Shown: positions 10,005-24,675, numbered from the stretch's first letter. The stretch is 32,000 nt of DNA from Candidatus Saccharimonadota bacterium (GCF_964030745.1 NZ_OZ034918.1:570001-602000), one strand, 5' to 3'. The notes: generated by a model from the letters alone, not told the origin. Numbers and translations are program-made.

Positions 10005-11762
10005 ATGTATACCCGTAAACTACCAATCGGCCTTAGTAACTTCCATAAGCTGGTAACCAACGATTACCTCTTTTGTGATAAAACACCTATGATTGCTGAA
10101 TTCTTGGAAAAGGGAGAAGAAGTTACGTTAATTACCCGACCTCGTCGTTGGGGCAAGACCCTGAATATGTCTATGTTGCAGCATTTCTTTGCTTCAGAGG
10201 TCAATGGGGTAAATACAGCAGGCTTATTTGATAATTTAGCCATAGGTAGATTAGAAGGTGCTCGATACATTAAGCAATACCAAGGAAAGTACCCTGTTAT
10301 TATGTTAAGCTTTAAGGATGTCAATGCAGATAGCTTTCAAGGGGCTTACAATGCAGTGTATGAATTGATCTTAAAGGTTTATAGCTTTTATCTCTATTTA
10401 TTTACAAGTGATAAAGTTAATGAGCTACAGTTAGAGCAATTGTATGTTATTCGCAATAGACAAGCTAATCAACAACAATTAGAATCCTCTTTAGAATTAC
10501 TCAGCCAATGCCTCTACCAACATCATGGTCAAAAAGTCTATATTTTGATAGATGAGTATGATACCCCGCTTAATAAAGCTTATGGCAATCAGGCATACTT
10601 GAATGATATAGTCGCATTTATGCGTAATCTCTTTAGTGCTGCCTTAAAAGATAATGATGCACTAGAAAGAGGCGTATTAACTGGTATACTGCGTGTTTCT
10701 AAGGATAGTATGCTTTCTGGATTGAATAACCTCAAAACTTACACCCTTTTAGATAAAGGTTATAGCAGCCACTTTGGTTTGAGCGAAATAGAAGTTCAAG
10801 ATTTATTTACCAAACAGAATCTTGCTATTTGCATGGACCAAGTAAAAAGTTGGTACAATGGTTACAAGGTAGGAGATTTAGTCATGTATAATCCTTGGTC
10901 CATTATTTACTGTTTGAGTGAAGAGGGTCGATTTGATGTCTATTGGGTAAATACAGGAAATAATGATTTAATTAAACAACTCATTCTTTCCTCTAATGAG
11001 AGCATTAAAGAGCAATTTACACAATTGATGCAAGGAGAAGCGTTAAGGGTATCTATCGATAAACATCTTGCTTTTGATGTGTTGGATAGAGATGAAATTG
11101 CTTTGTGGAGTTTACTGTTGTTTGCTGGATATATAACCTTTCAAACAAGTAACCTAAGTTTAGATAGTGATTTATATGATTGTATAGTTAGGGTTCCCAA
11201 TCATGAAATACGTAGACTCTACAATAGATTCTTTAAAGAATGGTTAAGTAGTAAGTTTGTTGATCAAGGCGTTTATGCCTCTTTTTTAGAACATTTAGTA
11301 GCTGGATCGGTGCCTCTTTTTGTAGCACAACTGAGCTTCTTCTTATGTCAAAGTGTTAGCTGTTTTGATACACAAGTTCCAAGAAAATCAGAAGGGTTTT
11401 ACCATGGTTTTGTTCTGGCCATGTTGGCGAGTTTGGGAAGAACCCACTATATACGCTCCAATAGAGAAAGTGGCTTAGGGCGTTATGATGTGCTACTGAT
11501 TCCCAAAGAAGGTACGCAGGCAGTTTTATTGGAATTTAAGCATGTACGTAAGGAAGAAGATTTGAAAAATGCAGCTCAATTTGCGTTAGATCAAATACAA
11601 TTGCAAGCGTATCATACTGAATTATTACAATATCCGCATGTTAAAGAAGTCATAGAATGCGGCATTGCTTTTTCCGGAAAGTCTGTATTAGCTGCTTATG
11701 CTACTTATGATTTGGTGCATAGACAAGCTGGAGCAGTGAGTTGGACGGAACTATATAAATAA
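10005..11762 (+). CDS. AAA-ATPase-like / PD-(D/E)XK nuclease family protein (paralog 1)
   Basis: 585 aa. Motifs: CDKTPMI..LITRPRRWGKTLNMSML (P-loop-like), VYILIDEYDTPLN (Walker-B-like), and C-terminal ESGLGRYDVLLIP...VLLEFKHV (D...ExK nuclease motif). This architecture is the one I recall as Pfam AAA-ATPase_like plus PDDEXK_9. Confidence 0.85.
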   Translation: MYTRKLPIGLSNFHKLVTNDYLFCDKTPMIAEFLEKGEEVTLITRPRRWGKTLNMSMLQHFFASEVNGVNTAGLFDNLAIGRLEGARYIKQYQGKYPVIMLSFKDVNADSFQGAYNAVYELILKVYSFYLYLFTSDKVNELQLEQLYVIRNRQANQQQLESSLELLSQCLYQHHGQKVYILIDEYDTPLNKAYGNQAYLNDIVAFMRNLFSAALKDNDALERGVLTGILRVSKDSMLSGLNNLKTYTLLDKGYSSHFGLSEIEVQDLFTKQNLAICMDQVKSWYNGYKVGDLVMYNPWSIIYCLSEEGRFDVYWVNTGNNDLIKQLILSSNESIKEQFTQLMQGEALRVSIDKHLAFDVLDRDEIALWSLLLFAGYITFQTSNLSLDSDLYDCIVRVPNHEIRRLYNRFFKEWLSSKFVDQGVYASFLEHLVAGSVPLFVAQLSFFLCQSVSCFDTQVPRKSEGFYHGFVLAMLASLGRTHYIRSNRESGLGRYDVLLIPKEGTQAVLLEFKHVRKEEDLKNAAQFALDQIQLQAYHTELLQYPHVKEVIECGIAFSGKSVLAAYATYDLVHRQAGAVSWTELYK

Positions 11763-11869: not shown

Positions 11870-11934
11870 TGTAGTAGTTGATATTTATAGCCAAGACAAT
11901 TTAACAATTGTCAGATTAAATATCAACTACTACA
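11870..11934. repeat. Perfect 18-bp inverted repeat with 29-nt spacer between the convergent AAA/PD-(D/E)XK genes
   Basis: tgtagtagttgatattta (11870-11887) pairs with taaatatcaactactaca (11917-11934). The right arm overlaps the last codons and stop of the 11923-13752 gene. It may act as a bidirectional terminator or may be an IS-end remnant. Confidence 0.8.
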
Positions 11935-13752
11935 TGTTTCTACTTCTTGAAAATAGCCAGCAGCATTAACGTTAAAATTTTTACGTGACATTACCTGAAA
12001 AGTATGCCACTCATCGCGTTGATGTATTTCAATAACTGCCTCTGTAATATTGAGTTTTGCAGCATCACATTTTAAACCTATAAGCACCTTCTTATGGCAT
12101 AAATCATATTGAAGGCTATAATCTTTATGACGTATTTGCTCCAAAGCTTCTAAGGCTGGTTTATCTACTTTTAGCTCAAAAATATAGATGGTTCTATGCT
12201 CATTATCTTGGTCTTCCATAATGATATCTGTACGGCCTATACCACTATCCCTTTCAGCACTAGCCCAAATACCATCGCTGGTATGAAAAGCACCGTTGAG
12301 AAAGGAGTATAAAGCACCCTGAAAACTCCTTTCAGATTTATCGAGAAAGCGGTAGCCTGCTTTGGCCAAGCAACCACTTCTAAGGCAGTTAAAGAAGGCC
12401 AACCAGTTGTCCGTTCTTAAATAATCTAGAATAGAATCTCTATATACCCTTCCTGCTGCTGCTTGTTTTTGAGCTATAAAATCAGCTAATACAAGTTTTA
12501 AAGCAGATTTTACTTCCCCATTAGGAAATTTTAAATAGTAATCAGTTTCGTTTTTGTCCGTTCTACAATCATTTGTAAATCCATCAGGATCTAACGTAAG
12601 GTACCCGGTTTGATACATTAGAGGCAGTAGAGGAGTTGTATGGAGCGTGCTAGCAACATATTCGAATGACTCTTGACTCATGATAAAATCATCTTTATCC
12701 CAATCTATGTTGAACCTACCGATATTATTTTTGATTTGTTGTAGTAAGATGGTAGGGTTACCAGAGTTGGACCAGTAATTACCAAATGATTTATCTCTAA
12801 AAAATTTTAATATAGAGTCTGGATTATAAACGCTTATTATTTTATCATCTGTAAAGCAATACCCATTATAATAATCCTTTAACGCTTGCTTGAGTTGAAT
12901 AAGTGTGTACTTTTCTTCCTGTCTCTTTTTTCTGTTAAGTTTTTCAAGTACTGGATTAATAATTTTTTCCTTGCTAAGGAATAGGTTGTCAATATCCTCT
13001 TCTGTATACCCCAACATCTCTGCATAATCCTCATGCAAGGATATATCATTGGCTGAATTGGCCCCTGAGGTAAGACCAGATAAATGAAATTTAGTTACAC
13101 CCGTTACAAAAATAAATTTACAGTCCTTCTGATGGGCTTTTAAAACTTTGAAAAATGAACTCAGAACGGATAGTACCTCTTCATACTGTTCTTTTTCACA
13201 GGAAATTAGTGGACTGTCGTATTCATCAATTAAGATAATGGGGGTAGGTTCATAATTATCTAGTTTGTTCAACAAATTAATTACTCTCTTTAGGTAATCT
13301 TCACATGCTTCATCTATCGAAATATTTATCTTATCGTTTACCTCAAAAAGCTCAGCAATATCATACAACTTTCTGTTAAGGCTTTTTTTTAGTTCCGTTG
13401 GGCCATCTTTAGCCAATTCTGAGAAATTCAACCAAATAACTGGATATTTTTTCCACTTATAGGTTGGATCTTCATAAATAGCACACCCTGTAAATAATGC
13501 TTTATTTCCTTTTGCTATTTGATCTATGGTATCAAGGAGTAGCGATTTACCAAATCTGCGTGGTCTTATAAAGAAGAAATAAGTACCATCATCGTTAAAT
13601 AGCTTAGCTATATAAGAGGTTTTATCTGCATAAAAGCTAGCATCTATCATCTGTTTGACGCTAGATTTTCCAATAGGAATGCGTACACCTCTGGCAGTGA
13701 TTGTTTTGCTTTCCTCGGTGCTTAAGCCTTTATCTTCTCTTTTATATTCCAT
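11923..13752 (-). CDS. AAA-ATPase-like / PD-(D/E)XK nuclease family protein (paralog 2)
   Basis: 609 aa, ATG start. Motifs: YADKTSYI..FIRPRRFGKSLLLDTI, PIILIDEYDSPL, and C-terminal DSGIGRTDIIMED...IYIFELKVD. Same architecture as 10005-11762. Confidence 0.85.
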   Translation of the reverse strand: MEYKREDKGLSTEESKTITARGVRIPIGKSSVKQMIDASFYADKTSYIAKLFNDDGTYFFFIRPRRFGKSLLLDTIDQIAKGNKALFTGCAIYEDPTYKWKKYPVIWLNFSELAKDGPTELKKSLNRKLYDIAELFEVNDKINISIDEACEDYLKRVINLLNKLDNYEPTPIILIDEYDSPLISCEKEQYEEVLSVLSSFFKVLKAHQKDCKFIFVTGVTKFHLSGLTSGANSANDISLHEDYAEMLGYTEEDIDNLFLSKEKIINPVLEKLNRKKRQEEKYTLIQLKQALKDYYNGYCFTDDKIISVYNPDSILKFFRDKSFGNYWSNSGNPTILLQQIKNNIGRFNIDWDKDDFIMSQESFEYVASTLHTTPLLPLMYQTGYLTLDPDGFTNDCRTDKNETDYYLKFPNGEVKSALKLVLADFIAQKQAAAGRVYRDSILDYLRTDNWLAFFNCLRSGCLAKAGYRFLDKSERSFQGALYSFLNGAFHTSDGIWASAERDSGIGRTDIIMEDQDNEHRTIYIFELKVDKPALEALEQIRHKDYSLQYDLCHKKVLIGLKCDAAKLNITEAVIEIHQRDEWHTFQVMSRKNFNVNAAGYFQEVETCSS

Positions 13753-13997: not shown

Positions 13998-14023
13998 TGT
14001 CAGATTAAATATCAATTACTACA
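13998..14023 (+). repeat. 26-nt direct repeat of 11909-11934, continuing into a solo IS-end-like sequence
   Basis: tgtcagattaaatatcaaTtactaca matches tgtcagattaaatatcaaCtactaca at 25 of 26 positions. It is followed by caatggcctca, which resembles the IS5-element right end (cacaacggcctcaa). Confidence 0.8.
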
Positions 14024-14035
14024 CAATGGCCTCAT

Positions 14036-14135
14036 CTTATTTCTAATGGCAATTTTTTAAATGCAGCGTGGTTGAGCACCGAAGCATACTAGATGTATTT
14101 GAAGCGCTATAAACAAGCCTCATCATTAAAATTGA
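14036..14135. repeat. Degenerate, rearranged MITE-B copy
   Basis: It has the left subterminal sequence tatttctaatggcaatttt. This is followed by the MITE-B interior in inverted orientation (gagcaccgaagcatactagatgtatttga matches the reverse complement of tcaaatacatctagtattctgcggtgctc). The outer terminal inverted repeats are missing. Confidence 0.65.
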
Positions 14136-14279
14136 CTTTAATCCCTTCACATAAATTATTTCTATAAAAGGTTGAACCTTTGGTTGCATTTAGCTAAGTT
14201 TGTTGTACACATCAATTGAAGGCCTTATTGTAGTCTTAAATTACATGCCACTTACCAAATCGTAAAACGAAAAAATCAG

Positions 14280-15275
14280 ATGAGCAACGATACTTATGTA
14301 GATGAACCTCTTTTGCAAGAGAATAAAAATAGATTTGTTTTATTCCCTATTGAGCATCACGATATTTGGAGTTTCTATAAACAAGCGGAGGCCAGTTTTT
14401 GGACTGCAGAGGAGATTGACCTTAGTCAGGATATAAAAGACTGGGAAAACTTAACATCTGGTGAAAAGCACTTTATTACCCATGTGCTTGCTTTTTTTGC
14501 TGCTAGCGATGGCATTGTAAATGAAAATTTGGTTCAAAACTTTGCCAATGAGGTACAATATACAGAGGCTAAGTTTTTTTATGGATTCCAGATTGCTATT
14601 GAAAACATCCACTCTGAAGCCTATTCTTTACTGATCGATACCTATGTCAAAGATCCCAAAGAACGCCATAGATTATTCAATGCTATAGAAACCATTGAGT
14701 GGGTGGGGAAAAAGGCAGATTGGGCGTTGCGTTGGATTAGTAAAGGTTCCTTTGCAGAGCGGTTAATTGCCTTTGCAGCAGTAGAAGGGATCTTTTTTTC
14801 TGGTAGTTTCTGTGCGATTTTTTGGCTTAAAAAAAGGGGATTAATGCCAGGGCTAACCTTTTCTAACGAGCTTATTTCTAGAGATGAGGGGCTACACTGC
14901 GATTTTGCTTGCTTGCTCTATAACCAACATATCAAAAACAAACTCCCGGAAGAGCGGGTTGCTCAAATTATAGCTGATGCAGTTGCCATTGAAAGTGAAT
15001 TTGTATCTGATGCCTTGCCAGTCAAGTTGATTGGTATGAATGCAGCGTTGATGACCCAGTATATTCAATTTGTTGCCGATAGACTGCTATTAGAGCTGGG
15101 ATGCAAAAAAATCTATCATGTAACCAACCCATTTGATTTTATGGAAATGATTGCTTTGCAAGGCAAAACCAATTTCTTTGAGAAGCGAGTAGGCGAGTAC
15201 CAAAAATCAGGGGTCATGAGCAGCATCTCTGAAGATAAAGACAAAGCACGATTTAAATTAGATGAGGAGTTTTAA
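14280..15275 (+). CDS. nrdB: Ribonucleoside-diphosphate reductase, class Ia, small (R2/beta) subunit
   Basis: 331 aa. Strongly R2-like and especially close to eukaryotic R2 as I recall it: [69 protein letters not shown] (radical Tyr and ExxH present), SRDEGLH, and a C-terminal FKLDEEF tail. Confidence 0.95.
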
Positions 15276-15486
15276 AACTTTATCAAAAATTCCCAAGTAG
15301 TAGCCTTACATACAGCCTTTAATCCTTAAGCAGTTAGATGCATCCTATGCAGCAGCACTATTCTCTATTAGCCAGGGGAGAAAATGCTTACGGAGTGCAT
15401 ATGGATCATCTGATGTAGACCACTGAGTGTGATGCATGGCATGCCTATTATTCGATGAACAATCAATAAAATATTATAAAGAGTAG

Positions 15487-17817
15487 ATGTTAGTTATAAA
15501 ACGCGATGGACGCTTAGAATCAGTTAAATTCGATAAAATAACCGCTAGAATAGAAAAGCTCTGCTATGGGTTAAATAGGGATTATATCGATGTCATAGCT
15601 ATTGTTAAAAAGATTATTGAAGGCATTTATGATCAGGTAACTACTTCAGCTATAGACAACTTGGCGGCAGAAACAGTAGCAACAATGGCGGTATACCATC
15701 CAGATTACGCTATTCTAGCTGCACGCATAGCGATTTCCAACCTACATAAGGAAACGAGTAAATCTTTTTCTAGTACCATAAAAAGGCTCTATACCTATGT
15801 AAATCCCTCAACTGGTCAGCATGCTTCCCTTATAGCTCAGGATGTGTATAAAATTATTTCCAGCCATGCAGCAACTTTAGATAATGCCATTGTGCATGAA
15901 CGTGATTTTACCTATGATTTTTTTGGTTTTAAAACATTAGAGCGTTCTTATCTGCTGAAAATAAATGGAAGGGTTGTAGAACGTCCTCAGTATATGTTGA
16001 TGCGTGTAGCAGTAGGCATTCATGGAAATGATTTAGATGCTGTGCTTGAGACCTATCAGCTCCTGTCTGAAAAATGGTTTACCCATGCCACGCCTACGCT
16101 TTTTAATGCAGGCACACCTAACCCACAACTTTCTTCCTGCTTTTTACTAACCATGCAAAGCGATAGCATTGAAGGTATTTACAATACCCTTACACAGTGT
16201 GCAAAAATATCTCAATTTGCTGGAGGCATTGGATTAAGCATTCATAACATACGTGCTACAGGTTCTTATATTCGAGGGACCAATGGTATTTCTAATGGGA
16301 TTGTACCAATGTTGCGGAACTTTGATATGACCGCTCGCTATGTAGATCAAGGAGGAGGCAAACGCAAAGGTAGTTTTGCCATCTATCTAGAGCCTTGGCA
16401 TGCAGATATCTTTGACTTTTTAGAGTTAAAGAAAAACCATGGAAAAGAGGAAAGAAGGGCCAGAGATCTTTTCTATGGGCTGTGGATTCCAGACTTATTT
16501 ATGCAACGTGTAGAGGCAGATGAGATGTGGTCACTCTTTTGTCCTAATGAAGCACCAGGGCTCTCGGACTGTTATGGAGCAGCATTTGAGCAAAAATACA
16601 AACAGTATGAAAAAGAAGGCAAAGCACGTACTTCTATTAAAGCACAAACGCTTTGGTTTGCGATTTTGGAGTCTCAAATAGAAACAGGAACCCCCTATAT
16701 GCTCTACAAAGATGCTGCCAATCAAAAGTCTAATCAAAAAAACTTGGGTACTATAAAGTCTAGCAACCTCTGTACAGAGATTATAGAATATACTTCGCCT
16801 GATGAAATTGCGGTTTGCAATCTTGCCTCTATTGCGCTCCCTATGTTTGTGGATGCCAATCGCTTCTTTGACCACAACAAATTATATACGGTTACCTATC
16901 TGGTCACCAAAAACCTTAACAAGATCATCGATCGGAATTATTACCCTCTAGCGGAAGCCCGCACTTCTAACTTAAGACACAGACCGATTGGTATTGGTGT
17001 GCAGGGACTGGCAGATACATTTCTTAAAATGAAGCTTGTGTTTGACAGCCCAGAAGCACGGTTACTCAATCAAGAAATTTTTGAAACCATTTATTTTGCC
17101 GCATTAACCGCTTCTAAAGATTTGGCACAGAAAGAGGGAGTATATGAAAGCTATCCTGGATCACCCATTTCACAAGGTATACTACAATTTGACATGTGGG
17201 GGGTAACCCCTTCTTCCGGAAGATGGGACTGGGATCACTTGCGTAACGAAATAGCCTGGCATGGCATAAGAAACGCACTACTGGTTGCGCCAATGCCCAC
17301 AGCCTCTACTTCTCAAATCCTGGGAAATAACGAATGCTTTGAACCCTATACCGCTAATATTTACACCCGAAGGGTGCTGTCTGGGGAATTTATTGTGGTA
17401 AATAAATACCTATTAGAGGATCTTATTCAGCTTGGTCTTTGGAATGAACAGGTGAAAGAAGCACTCATGATGGACAATGGCTCCATTCAACAGATTGCCT
17501 GTATTCCACAACACATTAAAAACCTCTATAGAACGGTTTGGGAGATTCCTCAAAAATCTATTATTGACATGGCTGCAGACCGTGCGCCCTATATTTGTCA
17601 AAGTCAAAGCCTAAATCTTTATGTGAAGGATGCAACCATGGCTAAATTAACCTCTATGCATTTTTATGCTTGGAAAAAAGGACTAAAAACGGGAATGTAT
17701 TACCTACGTACCAAGGCTGCAGCAGACGCTATTAAGTTTACCATACAAAAGAAAGAAAAAGTTGAAACACCTTTTCCAAGTGAAGGAGAAAAAGAATGCT
17801 TAATGTGCAGTGGCTAG
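15487..17817 (+). CDS. nrdA: Ribonucleoside-diphosphate reductase, class Ia, large (R1/alpha) subunit
   Basis: 776 aa. It has an N-terminal ATP-cone ([20 protein letters not shown]), the active-site region SSCFL and [26 protein letters not shown], and a C-terminal CLMC redox tail. Confidence 0.95.
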
Positions 17818-17841
17818 CTGGCCTATTTAACGCTTTGCTTT

Positions 17842-19296
17842 ATGACATACTTTAATATCTCGTTATGTATAATAGCTGCTTTTTTGTTGTTAACCTTGAT
17901 GGTAGGCATTTGCTTTAGTAGGCAAAAAATCACTTTTCGAGAATATGCAGTAGGCAATAAACAATTTGCTACCGCCACCTTGGTGGCTACAGTATTGGCT
18001 ACTTCCTATGGTGGGGGAGGGTTCATTCGTAATGTGCAGTATGTCCATAAACTTGGCCTGTATTGGATTATTCTTGTTTCGTTTGTGGATAGTTTCAGTA
18101 TATGGCTCTTTAGTAGATTGATGTTACGCATGGGGCCATTTATGCACAACCTCTCCATTGCAGAAACGATAGGTAATGTCTATGGTAAGTACCCAAGAAT
18201 TATTACCGCTTTGGTTGGTATTTGTCAGTCTATTATTGGCATTGCTATGCAAATTATCGCAATGGTCTACATGGTTAGCGTGTGTGTAGGTCTAAATTTA
18301 GTTAATTCCCAAATTATTACTATTCTTGCTGCTTTAATCCTTATTGCCTATTCTGTTTTTGGAGGCGTTCGTGCCGTTACCATTACAGATATCTTGCAGT
18401 TTATCACCTTTACTACCATTATTCCATTTTTAGCTTGGTTGATGTTTAAAACAACAGGTAAATCCATAGTAGAGGTCTTCGTTTTTCTACAAACGCAAGA
18501 AAAATTCCAGGTGAGTAGCCTACGCCAGTTTGATATGAATCTATCAGCGATAATTGCAATAGCTCTATGTATTATGGTTCCTGATATCGGGGCACCTGAA
18601 GTTATGCAAAGGGCCTATATGTCTTCTGGTGCTCATCAAGCACAAAAAGTCTTTTCATATGTCAGTTTTTTTAGTTTTTTGATTATAGGTTTTATACTAC
18701 TAATTAGTCTATTTGTTTTTGTAGGGGGAGGGGTAGGGTTACCAAGTGAAGCTATTTGGCATTATATCATAATGAACACTTCCCCCCTTTTTAAGGGCAT
18801 GGTTTGTATCAGCTTGCTTGCTATGGCTATGTCTACAGCTGATTCTTGCCTACATGTTTGCTCTGTTATGGTTAGTCATGATATTATGGCCACCATACAG
18901 GAAGAAATTGATGATGTGCGTAAACTTAAAATAGCTAGATCAACCACATTAGTAGTGGGGCTAGCTAGTATGTTTTTGGCTTTTTATTGTAAGGATCTGG
19001 TGGAATTGCTGATGCTAGGTTTTGCTTTTTCCCTTCCAGTAGTAACTGCTCCTGCTTTGTTAGCTGTTTTTGGTTTTCGAGGTACTTCCCGTACTGCTTT
19101 GATCGGTATGGCTACAGGTGCGCTGGCTATTTTAGTTTGGAATCAATGGGTGGAACCTGTAACGGAAATCAATGGCGCCTTTATCTGTATGTTGGCCAAT
19201 GGTTTGGCTATGATGGCTGCCCACTATTTACTCAAACAGCCAGAAAGTGCAGGGTGGGTTGGCACTAGTGTTATAACTATTGTGAAAACTTTTTAA
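17842..19296 (+). CDS. Sodium:solute symporter (SSS/SLC5) family protein, stand-alone paralog
   Basis: 484 aa, highly hydrophobic and multi-TM. It aligns along its full length with residues 1-472 of the downstream 1203-aa protein. It starts 24 nt after the nrdA stop. Confidence 0.8.
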   Translation: MTYFNISLCIIAAFLLLTLMVGICFSRQKITFREYAVGNKQFATATLVATVLATSYGGGGFIRNVQYVHKLGLYWIILVSFVDSFSIWLFSRLMLRMGPFMHNLSIAETIGNVYGKYPRIITALVGICQSIIGIAMQIIAMVYMVSVCVGLNLVNSQIITILAALILIAYSVFGGVRAVTITDILQFITFTTIIPFLAWLMFKTTGKSIVEVFVFLQTQEKFQVSSLRQFDMNLSAIIAIALCIMVPDIGAPEVMQRAYMSSGAHQAQKVFSYVSFFSFLIIGFILLISLFVFVGGGVGLPSEAIWHYIIMNTSPLFKGMVCISLLAMAMSTADSCLHVCSVMVSHDIMATIQEEIDDVRKLKIARSTTLVVGLASMFLAFYCKDLVELLMLGFAFSLPVVTAPALLAVFGFRGTSRTALIGMATGALAILVWNQWVEPVTEINGAFICMLANGLAMMAAHYLLKQPESAGWVGTSVITIVKTF

Positions 19297-19307
19297 CGAT
19301 TTCTTAT

Positions 19308-22300
19308 ATGATCTGCTTGAATATACCGCTCGTAATAGTAGGAGCCTTTTTGGTATTAACCTTGGTGGTAGGTATCTATTTTAGTAGAAAAAAAACTACT
19401 TTTCGGCAATATGCAGTAGGTAATAAGCAGTTTGCTACTGCTACTTTGGTGGCTACGGTATTGGCTACGCTTTTTGGAGGAGGAGGGCTGGTGCGTACTA
19501 TAGAGCGTGTCCATAGTTCTGGTTTTTATTGGGTAATATTAGCACTTTCAGGTAGCTTGGCTGTTGGGGTTATCAGTCCATTGGCCTTGCGTATGGGACC
19601 ATTTATGCAGCACCTTTCTCTTCCAGAGACTACAGGTAAAATATATGGTAAGTATGCGAGAGTTATTACGGCCTTAGCCAGTATTGGTTCTTCTATTGCT
19701 TTAATTGCTGGTCAAATCAATGTGATGTCCCTGGCTATTAGGATCTGTATAGATTCAATTGATCCAAAATCAATTACAATTTTTGCAACTTTAATACTTA
19801 TTGTTTATTCCATGTTTGGAGGTATTCGTGCCATTACCTTGACGGATGTATTACAATTTGTAACCTTTGCTGTTATTATTCCGCTTTTGGCTTATTATAT
19901 GATGTTAGCAACAGGAGATAAGCCAGTTGGTGAAATTATTTCTTTTTTACAGAGTCAAAAAAAATTTCAACTTAGTAGCGTATTGTATTTTGATACAAAA
20001 CTAGTCGCTATGATTGCGCTGATTTTATCTAATCTTATGTCCTATATAGACCCACCAACCATGCAGAGGGTCTATATGTGCTCTGGTCCTATCCAAGCAA
20101 GAAGTGTTTTTTTATATTCTACCTTTTTTAGCTTTGTTATAAAGATTTTTATAATTCTAGTGGGCCTATTTGTCTTCGTGGGAGCACCAGAGTTGCCGGT
20201 GGAATCCATTTGGAGTTATATAATGGTTCATATCCCACCTATGTTTAAGGGGGCAGTTTCCATTAGTTTACTTGCCATGGCTATGTCTACAGCTGATTCT
20301 TGCTTAAATTCATGTGCTGTTATGGTTAGCCATGATATTTTAGAAAGTGTAAGGGGTGTAAAGGATGTTCCCTATGTTCATCAGATCCGATTAGCTAGGA
20401 TAACTACTCTAGTTGTCGGACTATTTGCTATGGTATTATCTTTTTATTATGGCGATTTATTAAATCTATTTGTACTAGCTCTTGATTTGTCCGTCCCTAT
20501 CATAACGGCCCCTTTTATATTAGCTATTTTTGGTTTTAGGGGTACTTCACGTACCGCTTTGATCGGTATGGCTACAGGTGTATTGGCTATTGTAGCCTGG
20601 AACAAATGGGTTGAACCATCAACAAAAATAGACGGTTCCTTTGTGTGTATGTTAGCCAATGGTTTGGCTATGTTGGCTGCCCACTACCTATTCAAGCAGC
20701 CGGAAAATACAGGGTGGGTTGGGCCGGACGATGCCTTTGTACAGTTGCAGCAAGTCCGTGCCCGTAAACAGCAGGCACGTAAAGAAGCGATTAAAAATGG
20801 ATTGCTACATTTCAAAGAAACCTTGGCGCGACTGCGCCCCAGTCATGCTACACTTACATGTGTGGGGTTTTATGTACTTATCAGCAATTTACTAACCTAT
20901 TTTATAGCCCCTATTACTGACCATGGAGGCTGGCTCATTGCGCAGCTCTTGATAGGCATTTGCTTTTTAGGGTATAGTACCTTTGTCTCAGAAAAAATAA
21001 AACTGATTCCAAATTGGCTTATTGGACTACTTTGGCTAACTGGCTTATCTTTTTGCTTGCCTATCAATGTGCTATGGCACTGGTGGCATGGCACCAATCT
21101 GCTCTTAACCTTAGGTTTATCTTTGGTCCATTTGGTAGTAACCTTGTTGGTGCTTCCTTTATATCTTGGTGTCAGTTTTGTAATGGCTACCCTATTTATG
21201 GTTATCTACCTAAGCTCCATTTATTGTACCAATACATTAGTGCTTTCGCCATCAACTGTTGGGTTTCTGTTACTCTTCTGTTTGGGCTTAGGTTTGCTTA
21301 TTTTTGGCATTTTTGTTTACCTTAAGGCTAAGAATAATCATTATCTTGACCAAGTAAGCTACTTAAGGAATAGAGAGAAGATGCATACATCTCGTAAGCT
21401 AAAGGAATCGCTCTATAATTCAGCTATGCTTACTACTGCTCATACCCAGCCTAAAGGAACCGGCTCTATTTTAGCCCAAGTAGTAGGAAAAGTGGAAGAA
21501 TCCATCTCCTTTTTAGATGACGACATGCCCCTTTATAAAAAGGATTTCCAAAGCATTATCAATAAGTTTTATGATTGGGTGACCTATTTCAATAAAAAAG
21601 ACAAGGCCAAGGACCATGCATTATTGCAGCCTACTAAAATTACTGTAGATGCGTTGATTCGTAAGGTAGAGGTTGCCTTGTCTCAAGAGGTTGTACATCC
21701 TCCTAGGCTTTTTGTAGCGCAAATACAGGGGGGGGATAGTGTGCATTCTTTTTATATTATATGCGACATCGATCAGGTAATCTATGCATTGGTTAAGGCT
21801 ATTTTACAAGTTGGTAAGCTAGAAGATACGCTTGCGCCATTGGTTAAAATAGAATTCCACACCACCTCTTTGCAATTTAAACAGGCAGATCCTCTTGATG
21901 ATAGCGCGCCTTCTTGTATCGCTTTCGAAGCCATTGCGTTAGTGATAAGCGACCTTAGTACGCCTCCTGAAGCGCTTCCGACCATCAAAGCGGTCTATGA
22001 TGATGTGGTAGATGGCATGGGGGCACAAGGTAGACCAGAAATGTCACCATCGTTGGACCTTCAGCAGGAAACGATAGCCAGTATTGTGGCTGCCCATTAT
22101 GGTTATATGGAATATGGGACTGATGTTAAGAACAAAGCTATATTATTGGTATTGCCTACTGATGTCACAGCTATTCGTGATAAAATGATGATCAAGCTAC
22201 CTATAGACTGCTTAACATCCGAAATGCCTATCACCCCTAAGGAGCAAGCCGATTCCATGATGGTATTGATGCAGTTCCATGACTATATCTGCAAGTCTTC

Positions 22301-22919
22301 TCATCGATCAGATCCTGTTGATGTAGCCACAGTTTCTGGTTTGCTTTTATTGTTGCGGAAACATTTTCGCTTTAGGCGGCATAGCTCTGGCCAATTGTTT
22401 TATGTACGGGCGGTAGGCATTGCTGAATTGGTGGTAGAATGGGTTTTTCACTCGCCTAAAGTAATTTATGCCTCTTTGCTCTATGAGTTGGTACGCCATA
22501 CCTGTTTGCCCCTTTCTTATATTAAGCGCCATTATAATTTAGGCGTCTATGCCTTTGTATTGAATGTAGTGGGTATAGACAAACGTCAAGAACTAGATCA
22601 TCCCTCATTGCTTTATGTCCAGAACCGTTTGAAGGCAGCCATTAAAGAAGACCATGTACAGCTCTCTGTGCTCTTTATAAAACTGGCTGAGCGGCTCTAT
22701 GACCTACGCCATGCAGCAGGTTACATGCACCTCACAGAGGTACAACATATGGCGCAGGAAACCTTGGCTATAGATGTGCCAATAGCCCATGCATACTTGG
22801 GCCAAGAGATAAGCATGGCATTAGAGCAAGCGGCCAAACAGGCATTAGAGATTTATAAAAATAAACGTCAAGAACAATACATGCACCCGTCCTTCAAGGA
22901 CTTAGGACAACCCACTTAA
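19308..22919 (+). CDS. Multidomain membrane protein: SSS domain + extra TM block + degenerate HisK-like module + degenerate RelA/SpoT-type HD domain
   Basis: Uninterrupted 1203-aa frame. The SSS domain runs to ~20722 (WVG). A TM block spans ~20855-21330. The HK-like region spans ~21420-22170, with AHTQPKGTGSI resembling an H-box and ICDIDQVIYALVKAILQVGK...LLVLP resembling a HATPase fold. The HD-like region spans ~22321-22840, with HSSGQLFYVRAVGIAELV, SLLYELVRHT, IKLAERLYDLRH and AQETLAIDVPIAHAYLG. Confidence 0.75.
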   Translation: MICLNIPLVIVGAFLVLTLVVGIYFSRKKTTFRQYAVGNKQFATATLVATVLATLFGGGGLVRTIERVHSSGFYWVILALSGSLAVGVISPLALRMGPFMQHLSLPETTGKIYGKYARVITALASIGSSIALIAGQINVMSLAIRICIDSIDPKSITIFATLILIVYSMFGGIRAITLTDVLQFVTFAVIIPLLAYYMMLATGDKPVGEIISFLQSQKKFQLSSVLYFDTKLVAMIALILSNLMSYIDPPTMQRVYMCSGPIQARSVFLYSTFFSFVIKIFIILVGLFVFVGAPELPVESIWSYIMVHIPPMFKGAVSISLLAMAMSTADSCLNSCAVMVSHDILESVRGVKDVPYVHQIRLARITTLVVGLFAMVLSFYYGDLLNLFVLALDLSVPIITAPFILAIFGFRGTSRTALIGMATGVLAIVAWNKWVEPSTKIDGSFVCMLANGLAMLAAHYLFKQPENTGWVGPDDAFVQLQQVRARKQQARKEAIKNGLLHFKETLARLRPSHATLTCVGFYVLISNLLTYFIAPITDHGGWLIAQLLIGICFLGYSTFVSEKIKLIPNWLIGLLWLTGLSFCLPINVLWHWWHGTNLLLTLGLSLVHLVVTLLVLPLYLGVSFVMATLFMVIYLSSIYCTNTLVLSPSTVGFLLLFCLGLGLLIFGIFVYLKAKNNHYLDQVSYLRNREKMHTSRKLKESLYNSAMLTTAHTQPKGTGSILAQVVGKVEESISFLDDDMPLYKKDFQSIINKFYDWVTYFNKKDKAKDHALLQPTKITVDALIRKVEVALSQEVVHPPRLFVAQIQGGDSVHSFYIICDIDQVIYALVKAILQVGKLEDTLAPLVKIEFHTTSLQFKQADPLDDSAPSCIAFEAIALVISDLSTPPEALPTIKAVYDDVVDGMGAQGRPEMSPSLDLQQETIASIVAAHYGYMEYGTDVKNKAILLVLPTDVTAIRDKMMIKLPIDCLTSEMPITPKEQADSMMVLMQFHDYICKSSHRSDPVDVATVSGLLLLLRKHFRFRRHSSGQLFYVRAVGIAELVVEWVFHSPKVIYASLLYELVRHTCLPLSYIKRHYNLGVYAFVLNVVGIDKRQELDHPSLLYVQNRLKAAIKEDHVQLSVLFIKLAERLYDLRHAAGYMHLTEVQHMAQETLAIDVPIAHAYLGQEISMALEQAAKQALEIYKNKRQEQYMHPSFKDLGQPT

Positions 22920-23193
22920 CTTAAGGTTATTTTAATTTTATTTTGTATTATTGCGCTAGTTAGTCGCCCCTGAAGTATTATTTATTTACTTACCTGTTAA
23001 TCACAATAACAAGTATCAAAAACCTTTTTGTATTGATTATCAAATTAAAAAAATGATATAATCCAGTACTCATCTGAATACCTTAGGATCGACTAGTTAA
23101 AATAAAGCTGATCTGTCGTTTGATGTTCCTGTTCAAATTAGTAGCAGAAAGTACTTCTATATCACGCTTTTTTATTGGTATCAAGAAATTATT

Positions 23194-24381
23194 ATGAAGC
23201 AATTTATCCTAAATACTACCATACTAATGGTTAGTAGCCTCCTTTGTACGTTACAAGCAAGCAGCTGTTCGCAAGCGCAAAAGGAAAAACAGCAGAATCC
23301 TATTAGTAGCTTGAAGCCTCTATTCGACTCCTTTAGTCAAGGAGTATATAACACACCAATTCAGTATCATAATAGTTCATCTGTTGAATTAGGTCAGACA
23401 ACGGCTACAGGTGGTAATCTAATACATACAGCTGAATTAGGTCAGACAACGGCTACAGGTAGTAAGCTAACACATACAGCTGATGAAGCACTAAATAAAA
23501 AGCGGGATAAAGCTAGTCGAATTAGTATAGGATTATCAAGCGAGGAAGCTCATTTTGTAGATAATGTAGGCCAAAAAGATTCAGAGCTTGCAAAAAATAG
23601 GGAAGCGTTCGAAGGAGTCATAGGAACCGTCCGTAAAACTTTGGACAAAGATATTAAGCCTGCGTACAGTATGGTGCAGAAAATGATAGATGACTTGGAG
23701 CAAGAACCCAAAGCAGCCACTATGCTAAATATGCCACCTCAAACTCTATTAGCACCACTACGTCTTCAGCCTATTTTTTATCCTATTGAAGACAAAGAAG
23801 AAAATAAAGTAATGGGCATCTTCAAGAACTTAATCCGGAATTACCCCGGCATAGAAGATATAAAAACCATCAAAGAATTTCTATTACAACTTTCTGCTCA
23901 ACTAGAAACCCTGAGCCAGGGCTTTGATAAAGTAGAAGAAATAAAACGACTGTTTGCAGATACAGCGGAAGCAACCATACTGCTAGAAAAATTCAATGAA
24001 CTACTACTGTGGCATAAAGAGTTCGAAAATTCCAAACATATTCTTAAATTTTTATTTAATTCATCGAGCTTACCACCTGTATCAGAAATACAGGCAACCT
24101 TTAGCGCATTAGAGGTTTTACATAAAAAAATTGATAATAATAGTAATCATGCAGGTGAACTGCATGATATATTGTCGGAATTAAAAAAGATTTATAAACA
24201 ATTTTTGGCAAATTATGAAAGCTTCTGTGCGACTCTGTCTAGATCCAATGATGGGCAAGATTCTGAATATGGGTACCTAAAAGCATACTTTTTAGTTTTA
24301 GAAATGATCTATACCCACCATTATGGATTTATGTTAGTAGAGAAAACGGTTGAAAGAATAAAGAATAGCGCTAACTCATAG
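23194..24381 (+). CDS. Hypothetical secreted lipoprotein with internal tandem repeat and helical C-terminal region
   Basis: 395 aa, ATG start. It has a signal peptide with a candidate lipobox (LLCTLQASSC). No recognisable catalytic motifs. Confidence 0.6.
   Translation: MKQFILNTTILMVSSLLCTLQASSCSQAQKEKQQNPISSLKPLFDSFSQGVYNTPIQYHNSSSVELGQTTATGGNLIHTAELGQTTATGSKLTHTADEALNKKRDKASRISIGLSSEEAHFVDNVGQKDSELAKNREAFEGVIGTVRKTLDKDIKPAYSMVQKMIDDLEQEPKAATMLNMPPQTLLAPLRLQPIFYPIEDKEENKVMGIFKNLIRNYPGIEDIKTIKEFLLQLSAQLETLSQGFDKVEEIKRLFADTAEATILLEKFNELLLWHKEFENSKHILKFLFNSSSLPPVSEIQATFSALEVLHKKIDNNSNHAGELHDILSELKKIYKQFLANYESFCATLSRSNDGQDSEYGYLKAYFLVLEMIYTHHYGFMLVEKTVERIKNSANS
23386..23481 (+). repeat. 2 x 48-bp in-frame tandem repeat inside the lipoprotein gene
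   Basis: The two units are gaattaggtcagacaacggctacaggtGgtaaTctaaTacatacagct and gaattaggtcagacaacggctacaggtAgtaaGctaaCacatacagct. They encode ELGQTTATGGNLIHTA and ELGQTTATGSKLTHTA. Confidence 0.95.
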
Positions 24382-24405
24382 AAATAAGAATTTTATCGTA
24401 ATAAA

Positions 24406-24423
24406 CTGAGGCTATTGCAATAG
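24406..24423 (+). repeat. Solo IS5-like terminal repeat (IS scar)
   Basis: ctgaggctattgcaatag versus the left inverted repeat of the intact IS, ttgaggccgttgcaatag (6402-6419). No transposase is adjacent. Confidence 0.6.
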
Positions 24424-24449
24424 CCAGTTCCAGCCGTGCGTCTCCTTTC

Positions 24450-24675
24450 AGCTATTTACTAGAGCGCCATTTTTTTATCGAAGGAGACGTAGGGCTGGCA
24501 ATGGTTAGCCATTTGCTTTTTCAGAAAAAGGCAGCCATAGTGATGAATGGATATGGCAGAAAAGTAGATTTGTATCTAATCACGTCACTGGTTAGTAATG
24601 AATTGTATTCCACTTTTTTCTTGATAAAGAAGTGGACAAAAATCAAGCCCTAGGTAAAAAGTGGGGGACCTCACC
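24450..24675 (-). repeat. Mosaic repeat modules (family-A end fragment plus module C), inverted relative to 5580-5910
   Basis: 24455-24495 (tttactagagcgccatttttttatcgaaggagacg) matches 5577-5612. 24571-24675 is the reverse complement of module C (5803-5910). Confidence 0.8.

Follow-up and report, generated by a model that had tools for sequence, protein, structure and literature searches.

A Cardinium membrane protein joining a sodium/solute symporter domain to histidine-kinase-like and Rel/SpoT-type HD modules

Introduction

The window analyzed here (i.e., the whole stretch of 32,000 nucleotides) contains a long open reading frame that the first-pass annotation had read as a 1203-aa chimera: a transporter followed by further membrane helices, a pseudo-histidine-kinase and a Rel/SpoT-type HD domain with substituted catalytic residues. 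The locus raises the question of whether such a chimera is a genuine gene and, if so, what an importer would do with two attached enzyme-like modules that have lost their catalytic residues.

Results

Gene integrity and architecture

The frame is uninterrupted from ATG to stop at positions 19308-22919 of the plus strand, as had been noted, and its 1203-aa product is a 100% full-length match to an NCBI protein of an insect symbiont, the Cardinium endosymbiont of Philonthus spinipes, encoded on a 1,093,165-bp contig. At least eight full-length paralogs, the 1203-aa protein among them, are encoded on this contig. Given the existence of approximately 100 colinear full-length homologs (1110-1250 aa) from many independent genomes and metagenomes, the fusion of separate genes during assembly, raised earlier as a possible refutation, is excluded. 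The ORF is a genuine, intact Cardinium gene encoding an inner-membrane protein of four modules: a complete domain of the Na+/solute symporter type, a bundle of six membrane helices, a DHp and CA pair derived from histidine kinases, and a Rel/SpoT-type HD domain. The chimera observed in the first-pass annotation is thereby confirmed, and its interpretation is supported with three qualifications. The features of the locus, with the evidence for each in parentheses, are as follows.

17842-19296, plus strand: short-form paralog with the SSS domain only, 484 aa (BLASTP, junction sequence)
19308-20723, plus strand: SSS/SLC5 (LeuT-fold) Na+/solute symporter domain, aa 1-472, approximately 13 TM helices (Pfam, NCBIfam, profile, AF2)
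20724-20852, plus strand: cytoplasmic basic linker, aa 473-515, VQLQQVRARKQQARKEAIK... (sequence, AF2 secondary structure)
20853-21332, plus strand: second membrane block, aa 516-675, six TM helices (hydropathy, AF2 helices)
21333-21617, plus strand: DHp-like helical hairpin without the phospho-acceptor His, aa 676-770 (AF2, ZraS/ThkA alignment)
21618-22187, plus strand: CA-like (Bergerat/GHKL-fold) alpha/beta domain, aa 771-960 (Foldseek, profile against PDB, motif counts)
22188-22337, plus strand: helical linker between the CA-like and HD-like domains, aa 961-1010 (AF2 helix 977-997)
22338-22877, plus strand: Rel/SpoT-type HD domain (Pfam HD_4), aa about 1011-1190 (Pfam, structure alignment, profile)

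Symporter domain and short-form paralog

Pfam SSF (PF00474) matches aa 35-424 over profile positions 1-406 of 406, with an E-value of 2e-10 and 40.6 bits against a cut-off of 22.8, and the NCBIfam sss superfamily model TIGR00813 matches with an E-value of 8e-14, under its own trusted cut-off. The protein-family profile of this domain, compared with the PDB, yielded CHT1 (3e-22) and SiaT (1e-20). The full-length AF2 model, whose pLDDT is about 85-95 across aa 40-470, was compared with the PDB by Foldseek, which ranked SiaT (5nva; E-value 3.6e-12, TM-score 0.82, rmsd 3.6 Å, 480 columns) ahead of CHT1, SGLT, NIS and vSGLT. Residues 1-472 thus combine a PF00474 profile over the whole permease core with a LeuT-type fold, and are the full SSS permease that had been proposed.

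The TM8 motif AMSTADS is kept family-wide, with S331 invariant and M326-D330 at least 90% conserved. Its S327 and T328 (20286-20291) are a putative counterpart of the Na2-site Ser/Thr ligands of PutP and vSGLT. The short-form paralog, which ends 11 bp before the ATG of the long gene, matches the long protein over aa 1-474 at 57% identity (BLASTP); the short form (about 470-505 aa) is repeatedly present among the sampled Cardinium genomes, where orthologs of 473-476 aa share 69-77% identity. The conservation of this Na+-site-type motif and of SSS-only short paralogs argues for a functional transporter in the permease part.

Linker and second membrane block

The basic helix and roughly six hydrophobic helices described earlier were also recovered, and the coordinates given for the locus hold. 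In the AF2 model, the basic linker forms a single long helix (475-500) and then a short one. The segment does not resemble a STAC domain; Pfam yielded no match at E<=1 within aa 473-1203 other than HD_4. The six TM helices of the second block correspond to hydropathy peaks at 516-536, 543-561, 568-589, 598-616, 628-646 and 654-672. A Pfam search matched this block to no family, and it presents the lowest conservation of the protein family, with a mean pairwise identity of 0.36. Its final TM helix runs unbroken into the cytoplasm as helix 648-704 (AF2), a continuity also found in sensor kinases.

Kinase-like module

As a single sequence, the middle region matches nothing in Pfam or the PDB, and Pfam HisKA and HATPase_c were matched neither in the 1203-aa protein (E<=1) nor in eight relatives (E<=0.1). 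A family profile of the region, however, matches ThkA (E-value 1.5e-8) and ZraS (1.5e-5) in the PDB. The profile searches proposed in the first-pass annotation returned HD_4 above threshold and the kinases by family profile, but not the Pfam kinase families expected. In the structural search, also proposed there, the AlphaFold model of the region (pLDDT 77) yielded 235 Foldseek matches in the PDB at E<=1e-3, and the top 50 are all DHp-CA-type kinases or kinase-like proteins (i.e., two-component sensors, RetS and phytochromes). The best E-values are 5.4e-9 for ZraS, 6e-9 for HK853, 9e-9 for CckA and 2.5e-8 for RetS (6dk7), with modest TM-scores (0.3-0.5) because the DHp/CA orientation differs from that of solved kinases. 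At the level of fold, the model indicates membership in the DHp-CA histidine-kinase superfamily, with a DHp-like hairpin built from mid-region model helices 2-33, 43-59 and 66-95.

The loss of the ATP-binding boxes, claimed for a unit colinear with HisKA/HATPase_c, is borne out across the 99 full-length members compared. The N-box column is K830 (21795-21797) in the 1203-aa protein, and Asn occupies it in one of 88 Cardinium-type members and 6 of 11 relatives; the G-box motif D.G.G occurs in 0/99 and G.G.G in 1/99. The H box, previously read as retaining its His, requires correction. The codon at 21441-21443 does encode His712, yet the H-box His of ZraS aligns with the adjoining T713, His712 lies in a low-confidence loop, and none of the other 98 members has a His in this column or its neighbors, so that the residue is a paralog-specific coincidence. 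H930, G932 and P950 are family-invariant in the CA-like domain, where AHYG (H930, 22095-22097) and LP (P950) are the counterparts of the terminal HGG...LP stretch in the CA domains of kinases; the region of the ATP lid falls in a variable loop modelled with low confidence (AF2). No response regulator was found within the 32-kb window or beside the five related loci examined. Judged by its motifs, the kinase-like module is dead, having neither phospho-acceptor His nor ATP-binding G boxes across the family. In the helical linker that follows it, a low-confidence segment (961-972) stands ahead of helix 977-997, and conservation inside the Cardinium-type group is 0.52.

Rel/SpoT-type HD domain

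The proposal of a C-terminal Rel/SpoT-type HD domain was upheld. Pfam HD_4 matches with an E-value of 1.2e-8 and 35.3 bits (cut-off 27.2), the C-terminal 224 aa match Rel structures in the PDB as a single sequence (8acu, 1.9e-6; 1vj7, 4e-6), and the HD family profile matches Rel at 1e-33 and MESH1 at 1e-13. Both the HD_4 profile and the similarity to solved Rel/SpoT hydrolase domains place it in the RSH superfamily.

Residues were assigned by residue-wise alignment to 8acu and 1vj7, using RelSeq numbering. The Mn2+ ligands H53, H77, D78 and D144 read R1034, Y1059, E1060 and E1128, and the catalytic E81-D82 pair and N148 read R1063, H1064 and D1132; the H147 position is Y1131, while R145 is kept as R1129. 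The replacement of the HD dyad by YE at 22482-22487 (Y1059/E1060) was therefore correctly identified, together with a wider set of metal and catalytic substitutions. The substitution table covers the 99 full-length members (88 Cardinium/Amoebophilaceae-type and 11 relatives), and a further 42 relatives were counted separately. The canonical set is absent from 88/88 Cardinium/Amoebophilaceae-type members: Y at H77, E at D144 and D at N148 are invariant, R at H53 occurs in 87/88, and D78, E81 and D82 are variably substituted (D78 by E, G or A, or left as D), giving the nearly fixed set R, Y, E/D/G, R, H/R/Y, E, D. Outside this clade, 39 of 53 full-length relatives (10/11 and 29/42) have the canonical H/H/D/E/D/D/N; all of these are uncultured. 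Most full-length relatives outside the clade thus combine this architecture with an HD active site that is canonical by sequence, and (p)ppGpp hydrolysis is predicted to be present in these relatives and absent in the 1203-aa protein.

The HD domain is nonetheless the most conserved in the Cardinium-type group, with a mean pairwise identity of 0.66 (83 members), versus 0.55 for the SSS domain and 0.36-0.47 for the other domains. Such conservation shows constraint, although it does not specify the constrained function. Given how strongly the substituted domain is conserved, a role of the two dead modules as binding domains, as first suggested, is plausible.

Family distribution and literature

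The family is large, expressed and uncharacterised. Its architecture is not rare: the members form a few hundred 50%-identity clusters, which databases label 'sodium:solute symporter family transporter' or 'HD domain-containing protein'. Some homologs, of 960-997 aa, lack the HD domain, and other copies are truncated or split (513 aa with SSF, 438 aa with HD_4). Together with the conserved SSS-only paralogs, these show that at least some members can do without the cytoplasmic modules.

Pieces of the family have been reported as an expansion of 'sodium-solute symporters' (PMC5698495, PMC8831229), as a 'rickSpo' hydrolase expansion (PMC3153485), and under the name 'spoT/sodium glucose cotransporter' (PMC6232779). 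In the literature searched, the family appears only piecemeal, and the fusion, the kinase-like module and the loss of catalytic residues are not analysed. The suggestion of an undescribed architecture is qualified accordingly, the family being large and annotated.

Comparison with known systems

CbrA, CrbS/MxtR and RpuS, like the 1203-aa protein, carry an N-terminal 13-TM SSS/SLC5 domain and cytoplasmic DHp and CA domains in one polypeptide. In comparison with the CbrA/CrbS type, the 1203-aa protein lacks STAC and PAS, in whose place stand a helix of 45 aa and an additional bundle of six TM helices; its DHp lacks the phospho-acceptor His, its CA lacks the G1 and G2 boxes and, in Cardinium, the N-box Asn; a Rel/SpoT HD is its last module, and no cognate regulator was found nearby, where an unlinked one may still exist. 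Of the features of SLC5/STAC sensor kinases beyond the SLC5 domain, STAC and PAS, the H box, and the N, G1 and G2 boxes are all absent.

The C-terminus shares its HD_4 (RSH hydrolase-type) domain with the small alarmone hydrolases Mesh1, PbcSpo and 'rickSpo', whose full H/HD/ED/D/N catalytic set is also found in the canonical-HD relatives. Here, in contrast, the HD_4 domain closes a membrane protein of 1203 aa (aa about 1011-1190), which so falls outside the SAH class of Atkinson et al. 2011, defined by an HD domain alone, and in the clade of this protein all metal ligands and the catalytic ED pair are replaced. The 14 'rickSpo[H]' proteins that Atkinson et al. reported in Amoebophilus asiaticus (PMC3153485) very probably belong to the family of the 1203-aa protein. 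Of the (p)ppGpp synthetases, one Rel[HS] is documented, and that for A. asiaticus only.

The hydrolase domain of E. coli-type RelA[hS] is catalytically inactive and, like the Cardinium HD, is an RSH hydrolase domain that has stayed conserved after losing catalysis, in a structural or regulatory role (PMC3153485); its partners in the polypeptide are synthetase and ribosome-binding domains, where the Cardinium HD has a transporter and a dead kinase module, and the replacement residues differ. RetS-type modules likewise have a DHp-CA fold without canonical autokinase function. RetS, however, acts on the partner kinase GacS in a two-component network, whereas no such partner is evident for the 1203-aa protein, and at 12-15% identity the two are only remotely similar in sequence.

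Discussion

The reading we favor, with a probability of roughly 60%, is that of a transceptor-like importer with alarmone hydrolysis as its ancestral output; in Cardinium, the output domain would be a non-catalytic binding or regulatory module, a function that we infer. The SLC5-domain sensor kinases CbrA and CrbS are the precedent for regarding the protein as a 'transceptor', a concept applied to CbrA, whose SLC5 domain was shown to transport histidine (PMC7918813, PMC7096432). The protein would probably dimerise through its DHp-like helices, like histidine kinases; the models are monomeric, so this is deduced from the fold. The transport cycle of the symporter would probably be coupled mechanically to the cytoplasmic modules via the six-TM bundle and the unbroken helix 648-704. 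Ancestrally, the protein would have hydrolysed (p)ppGpp-type alarmones as its output, and nutrient uptake would therefore lower the starvation signal. The Cardinium domain, apparently no longer an enzyme, has most likely been kept as a binding module, since its conservation is the strongest in the protein. Its Arg-rich, metal-free pocket would suit a phosphorylated nucleotide, the alternative being a protein partner, and the module would adjust the activity of the importer to which it is attached or signal that importer's state.

An unlikely account is that of a plain nutrient importer whose C-terminal 700 residues are a relic of a formerly functional sensor/hydrolase, ballast heading for loss. 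In its favor, the catalytic residues are gone from both enzyme-like modules, SSS-only paralogs are abundant and conserved, and truncated, split and HD-less copies exist. Against this, the HD-like domain is the best conserved of all (0.66 over 83 Cardinium-type members), the replacement residues are themselves largely fixed, and about 90 members remain full length in many reduced genomes, which normally shed DNA of no use. Alternatively, the substituted HD could still be an enzyme with altered chemistry, e.g., a phosphohydrolase for another nucleotide that needs no metal or binds it through different ligands: the substituted set is conserved as active sites are, and the fold and several phosphate-contacting positions are retained (the SG motif, R1129 at RelSeq R145, and a conserved ETL...P.A motif). 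We consider this very unlikely given that the four HD-superfamily metal ligands and the E81/D82 pair are all replaced together, and the H...HD...D metal site is not known to be dispensable for any enzyme of the HD superfamily.

A non-canonical but functional histidine kinase with an unlinked response regulator, as in CbrA/CrbS, would agree with the DHp and CA fold, the profile similarity to ThkA and ZraS, and the N-box Asn kept in some relatives. It is nevertheless highly improbable: 98 of 99 members lack a His at or beside the H-box column, the family lacks G1 and G2 boxes, the presumed ATP lid is variable and poorly predicted, no Pfam kinase family is matched even at E<=1, and no regulator lies in the window or at the five related loci. 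As for an assembly or annotation artefact fusing separate genes, no support was found, the sole hint being the split versions elsewhere; the identical protein in a public genome, its full-length paralogs on the same contig, the colinear homologs in independent assemblies, and the continuous AF2 helix joining the membrane and cytoplasmic parts reduce its probability to practically nil.

If the transceptor-like reading is true, the at least eight long and several short paralogs per approximately 1-Mb genome would supply importers that differ in specificity and share one mode of post-translational control. A bolder version, which we regard as rather doubtful, has a single protein serve as the whole pathway between nutrient uptake and the stringent response, and in it the Cardinium/Amoebophilus hydrolase has become an alarmone or nucleotide receptor gating at least eight paralogous importers. 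Were this version true, solute flux through the symporter would switch on alarmone hydrolysis in the intact-HD relatives, the kinase-derived transmitter would work independently of phosphorylation, and a post-translational 'stringent control of import' would replace transcriptional regulation in a genome with few regulators.

The long gene and its product

Two adjacent genes of the window belong to the family studied here:
19308..22919, + strand: long SSS-fusion ORF, 1203 codons, uninterrupted
17842-19296, + strand: SSS-only paralog, 484 aa, 57% identical to the permease domain of the long gene and ending 11 bp before it

The long product is identical, over its full length (100% identity), to the public "sodium:solute symporter family transporter" of the Cardinium endosymbiont of Philonthus spinipes. 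This confirms the single 1203-aa frame read in the first-pass annotation, every coordinate of which was verified for this gene. Cardinium, of the family Amoebophilaceae (Bacteroidota), manipulates arthropod reproduction, is widespread and is not culturable. At least eight full-length paralogs of the long protein are encoded on the 1,093,165-bp Cardinium contig. The window has a G+C content of about 38-40%, and its other genes include those for ribonucleotide reductase, TrpRS, Omp85, FloA and an IS element; both are consistent with a Cardinium source. A 103-aa TTG-start ORF in another frame of the TM-block coding region (21014-21325, + strand), hydrophobic in composition, is very probably spurious.

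Permease and second membrane block

The Pfam SSF family aligns to aa 35-424 over all 406 profile positions (40.6 bits, cut-off 22.8), and the family profile matches the solved SSS transporters CHT1 (3e-22) and SiaT (1e-20). The full-length AlphaFold model has a mean pLDDT of 79 and a pTM of 0.66, with pLDDT 85-95 in the permease, which superposes on the sialic-acid symporter SiaT with a TM score of 0.82 (rmsd 3.6 Å). The TM8 motif AMSTADS is conserved family-wide, and we take its Ser/Thr pair to be equivalent to the pair that makes the Na2 site in PutP and vSGLT. Given these results, the permease looks complete and is predicted to be functional, in line with the full SSS permease originally proposed.

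The basic helix and roughly six further hydrophobic helices noticed in the first reading were likewise recovered from sequence and model:
aa 475-500: basic helix past TM13
between aa 516 and 672: six hydrophobic helices

This second membrane block has no Pfam family match and is the least conserved region of the protein. In the model, the last TM helix is predicted to run on into the cytoplasm as one helix (648-704), an unbroken layout typical of sensor kinases.

Kinase-like module

Searched as a single sequence against Pfam and PDB, the middle region (aa 676-960) returned nothing; its kinase fold was revealed only by a family profile and a structure model. Against PDB, a 12-sequence profile matched the Thermotoga kinase ThkA (E 1.5e-8) and ZraS (1.5e-5), with alignments spanning the first helix of the DHp hairpin to the N-box helix. 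The terminal "IIeAHYGy...vyViPv" aligns with "IVEQHGGTIQV...FTLWLPV" of ZraS. The AlphaFold model of aa 676-1012 has a mean pLDDT of 77, rising to about 90 in the alpha/beta domain, and Foldseek found 235 PDB matches to it at E<=1e-3. The best 50 of these are all histidine-kinase or kinase-like modules of the DHp-CA type (i.e., helical hairpin plus ATP-binding domain), including ZraS (5.4e-9), HK853 (6e-9), CckA (9e-9) and RetS (2.5e-8); phytochromes appear lower down.

The family was examined in an alignment of 99 full-length members, comprising 88 of Cardinium/Amoebophilaceae type (hereafter Cardinium-type) and 11 more distant relatives. The phospho-acceptor His of ZraS corresponds to T713, and no other member has a His in this column or its neighbours. 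H712, initially read as a retained H-box His, must be abandoned as such, being seen in this one member of the 99 and lying in a loop with pLDDT <50. The N-box Asn is replaced by K830 and occurs in one of the 88 Cardinium-type members and six of the 11 distant relatives. The D.G.G motif is found in 0 of 99 members and G.G.G in one. A candidate G1/G2 remnant, "DGMGAQG" (aa ~903-909), was rejected: it misfits both motifs, does not recur in paralogs and falls in a loop of pLDDT <50. Hence, the proposed HisKA/HATPase_c-like segment without ATP-binding boxes is borne out and, judged by its motifs, the module is catalytically empty. The counts across the family thus suggest that the pseudokinase state is ancestral to the whole family.

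Searching the mid-region profile against 1.84 billion representative proteins gave 380 clusters at E<=1e-3. The best 150 carry the domain at about aa 670-980 in proteins of 1110-1250 aa, or else are fragments. This divergent kinase module therefore appears to be essentially specific to the SSS/6-TM/HD architecture.

HD domain

Pfam HD_4 matches the C-terminus (aa ~1011-1190) with 35.3 bits (cut-off 27.2). The last 224 aa align with B. subtilis Rel (8acu, E 1.9e-6) and RelSeq (1vj7, 4e-6), and the family profile scores 1e-33 against Rel and 1e-13 against MESH1. Catalytic positions were mapped from the 1vj7 alignment.

Table. Residues of the long protein at RelSeq catalytic positions
RelSeq H53: R1034
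RelSeq H77: Y1059
RelSeq D78: E1060
RelSeq E81: R1063
RelSeq D82: H1064
RelSeq D144: E1128
RelSeq R145: R1129 (kept)
RelSeq H147: Y1131
RelSeq N148: D1132

Neither the four metal ligands nor the catalytic ED pair survive, and the SpoT/Rel-like HD domain with substituted catalytic residues described in the first-pass annotation stands.

In the 99-homolog alignment, the canonical catalytic set is missing from 88 of 88 Cardinium-type members, whose typical motifs are "LLY[EDG]LVR[HRY]T" and "KLAERLYDLR". Y, E and D are invariant among them at the H77, D144 and N148 positions and R occupies the H53 position in 87 of 88, while D78, E81 and D82 are variably substituted. The canonical residues (H/H/D/E/D/D/R/N) are present in 10 of the 11 more distant relatives. 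A further 42 full-length representatives split into 29 with the canonical residues and 13 that have degenerated in differing ways; HD catalysis has therefore been lost repeatedly in the family. Mean pairwise identity of Cardinium-type members is highest in the HD domain (0.66), compared with 0.55 in the permease and 0.36-0.47 in the TM block and kinase-like parts.

Extent of the family

Rather than being a one-off chimera, the long protein belongs to an expressed and uncharacterised family of considerable size that centres on Amoebophilaceae, with transcription of members shown in a related strain. Short forms of about 470-505 aa are a recurrent class in the sampled Cardinium genomes (473-476-aa orthologs are 69-77% identical), which rules out the 484-aa paralog being a random truncation. 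Split, truncated and HD-less copies also occur. In Cardinium of Nabis limbatus (OZ239769.1, locus L085, 634-12615), a family cluster contains two short forms (479 and 465 aa), a split copy (a 513-aa SSF gene with a 438-aa HD_4 gene directly after) and a 1204-aa homolog that is the best match of the window gene (68% identity). This cluster shows that duplication and breakage of the family are ongoing.

The relatives with a canonical HD domain are all uncultured, and several bear hallmarks of host association. Describing them as "free-living" was rejected, given contigs with ankyrin-repeat, patatin, TPR or transposase genes, tandem paralogs, or a 1.45-Mb chromosome. Long paralogs in tandem or close together are also seen among relatives outside Cardinium (L084:6001-13298 in CP136537.1, and L001); examples are a "Roseivirga sp." MAG with a chromosome of only 1.45 Mb and a metagenome contig with an ankyrin-repeat protein and a transposase. 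Together these observations suggest that the family as a whole is linked to host-associated Bacteroidota.

A genome-collection scan using the full-length alignment, with HD motifs as search patterns, returned ordinary Rel/SpoT at 78 of 80 loci, only L002 and L003 being informative. L002 (JAQSWU010000002.1, 4986-7979), in a MAG labelled Rickettsiaceae, encodes a 997-aa homolog with 32% identity in SSS, a colinear AHYG...P and no HD domain, to be explained either by lateral transfer from one intracellular bacterium to another or by faulty binning. The label is of interest since Amoebophilus HD domains were filed under the Rickettsiales "rickSpo" group by Atkinson 2011 (PMC3153485).

Genomic neighbourhood

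The following features lie near the two genes:
6530-7564, + strand: IS-type transposase, DUF772 + DDE_Tnp_1, TTG start
10005-11762, + strand, and 11923-13752, - strand: two convergent paralogs, each AAA-ATPase_like + PDDEXK_9
14280-17817, + strand: ribonucleotide reductase small and large subunit genes, directly upstream
23194-24381, + strand: 395-aa ORF downstream of the long gene

Genes beside family members are housekeeping and not conserved between genomes, and no response regulator was found near the long gene or at the relatives' loci examined. Just 24 bp separate nrdA from the short SSS gene, suggesting that nrdB-nrdA-SSS(short)-SSS(long) form a single transcription unit. The nrdA-SSS adjacency is not kept at the best-matching long-form homologs of two other Cardinium genomes (L085, L086), and a scan of 14000-24500 for sigma-70 promoters and terminators found as many as in shuffled sequence and was uninformative on co-transcription. 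Mobile elements are also common beside family members elsewhere (L001, L085, L086). No Pfam family exceeds its threshold in the 395-aa ORF, whose hydrophobic N-terminus ends in Cys (a possible lipoprotein signal) and which contains the direct internal repeat ELGQTTATG(G/S)(N/K)L(I/T)HTA. As to the two AAA-ATPase_like paralogs, a "putative AAA-ATPase" family is reported to have expanded more than any other in Cardinium cPpe (PMC6232779).

Comparison with known systems

In working, the long protein is closest to the SLC5/STAC sensor kinases CbrA and CrbS, transporter-sensor kinase fusions accepted as bacterial "transceptors". Unlike these, it has no STAC/PAS domain, H box or G boxes, and no response regulator was found. 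Profile and alignment place its tail in the RSH hydrolase-domain superfamily, but the tail lacks the catalytic residues and does not count as a "small" alarmone hydrolase. The nearest analogue of the tail is the inactive hydrolase domain of RelA, and that of the kinase-like part is the RetS-type non-phosphorylating module.

Literature labels the family plainly as "sodium-solute symporters". For Amoebophilus asiaticus, one paper gives 19 symporters whose function is unknown (PMC8831229). Another, by Atkinson et al., describes the species as a "Rel[HS] + rickSpo[H] expansion" and places its rickSpo proteins, 14 in number, in the class of small alarmone hydrolases, those "containing only the HD domain" (PMC3153485). 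Very probably, the rickSpo expansion and the separately reported symporter expansion are the same genes. One review treats signalling proteins in which an SSS domain is joined to sensor kinases, GAF or PP2C; fusions to HD domains are absent from it (PMC7918813). The literature search found no paper naming both "Cardinium" and "alarmone", and the fusion architecture, kinase-like module and pseudo-enzyme state are analysed nowhere in it; the component pieces are known. The initial view of an undescribed architecture thus holds for the analysis of the fusion, but not for the family, which is already in databases and, piecemeal, in the literature.

Proposed mechanism and alternatives

We propose that the long protein is a four-module fusion derived from an alarmone-hydrolysing transceptor, with the Cardinium HD domain serving as a binding module, and give this combined reading a probability of about 0.6. 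Its architectural part is near certain; its functional part, drawn from sequence and models, has between one chance in three and one in two. The protein would dimerise through the DHp-like hairpin, and conformational changes of the symporter would pass via the six-TM bundle and the continuous helix to the cytoplasmic modules. In the ancestral canonical-HD form the output would be alarmone hydrolysis, so that taking up nutrients would reduce the starvation signal. In Cardinium, hydrolysis would be gone and, with three metal/catalytic positions now Arg, the domain may form a metal-free basic pocket. Most likely it would bind a phosphorylated nucleotide or a partner protein, regulating the importer or reporting on it.

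The main rival, a plain importer with a relic tail, would also fit the lost catalytic residues of both enzyme-like modules, and we consider it improbable. The dead HD domain is the best conserved part of the protein, which indicates purifying selection on a new, presumably non-catalytic role rather than decay. An HD enzyme with altered chemistry is still less probable; R145 is kept and several substituted positions are invariant, which would favour it, but every metal ligand and the ED pair are gone. That the kinase-like module is a working kinase is scarcely credible: its fold is recognisable, but the H box and the G boxes are missing in nearly all family members. The chance that the long frame arose as an assembly artefact is negligible, with the identical protein present in the public genome and colinear homologs of 1110-1250 aa in independent assemblies.

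The proposed protein would extend the transceptor principle to another output, alarmone hydrolysis of the (p)ppGpp type, coupled via a kinase module unable to phosphorylate, and such a finding would surprise specialists in alarmone signalling and symbiont physiology. Two conserved pseudo-enzymes as a tail, with intact-site relatives for comparison, reframe the study of these proteins. If true, the family would provide a direct physical link, hitherto undescribed, between nutrient import and alarmone turnover.
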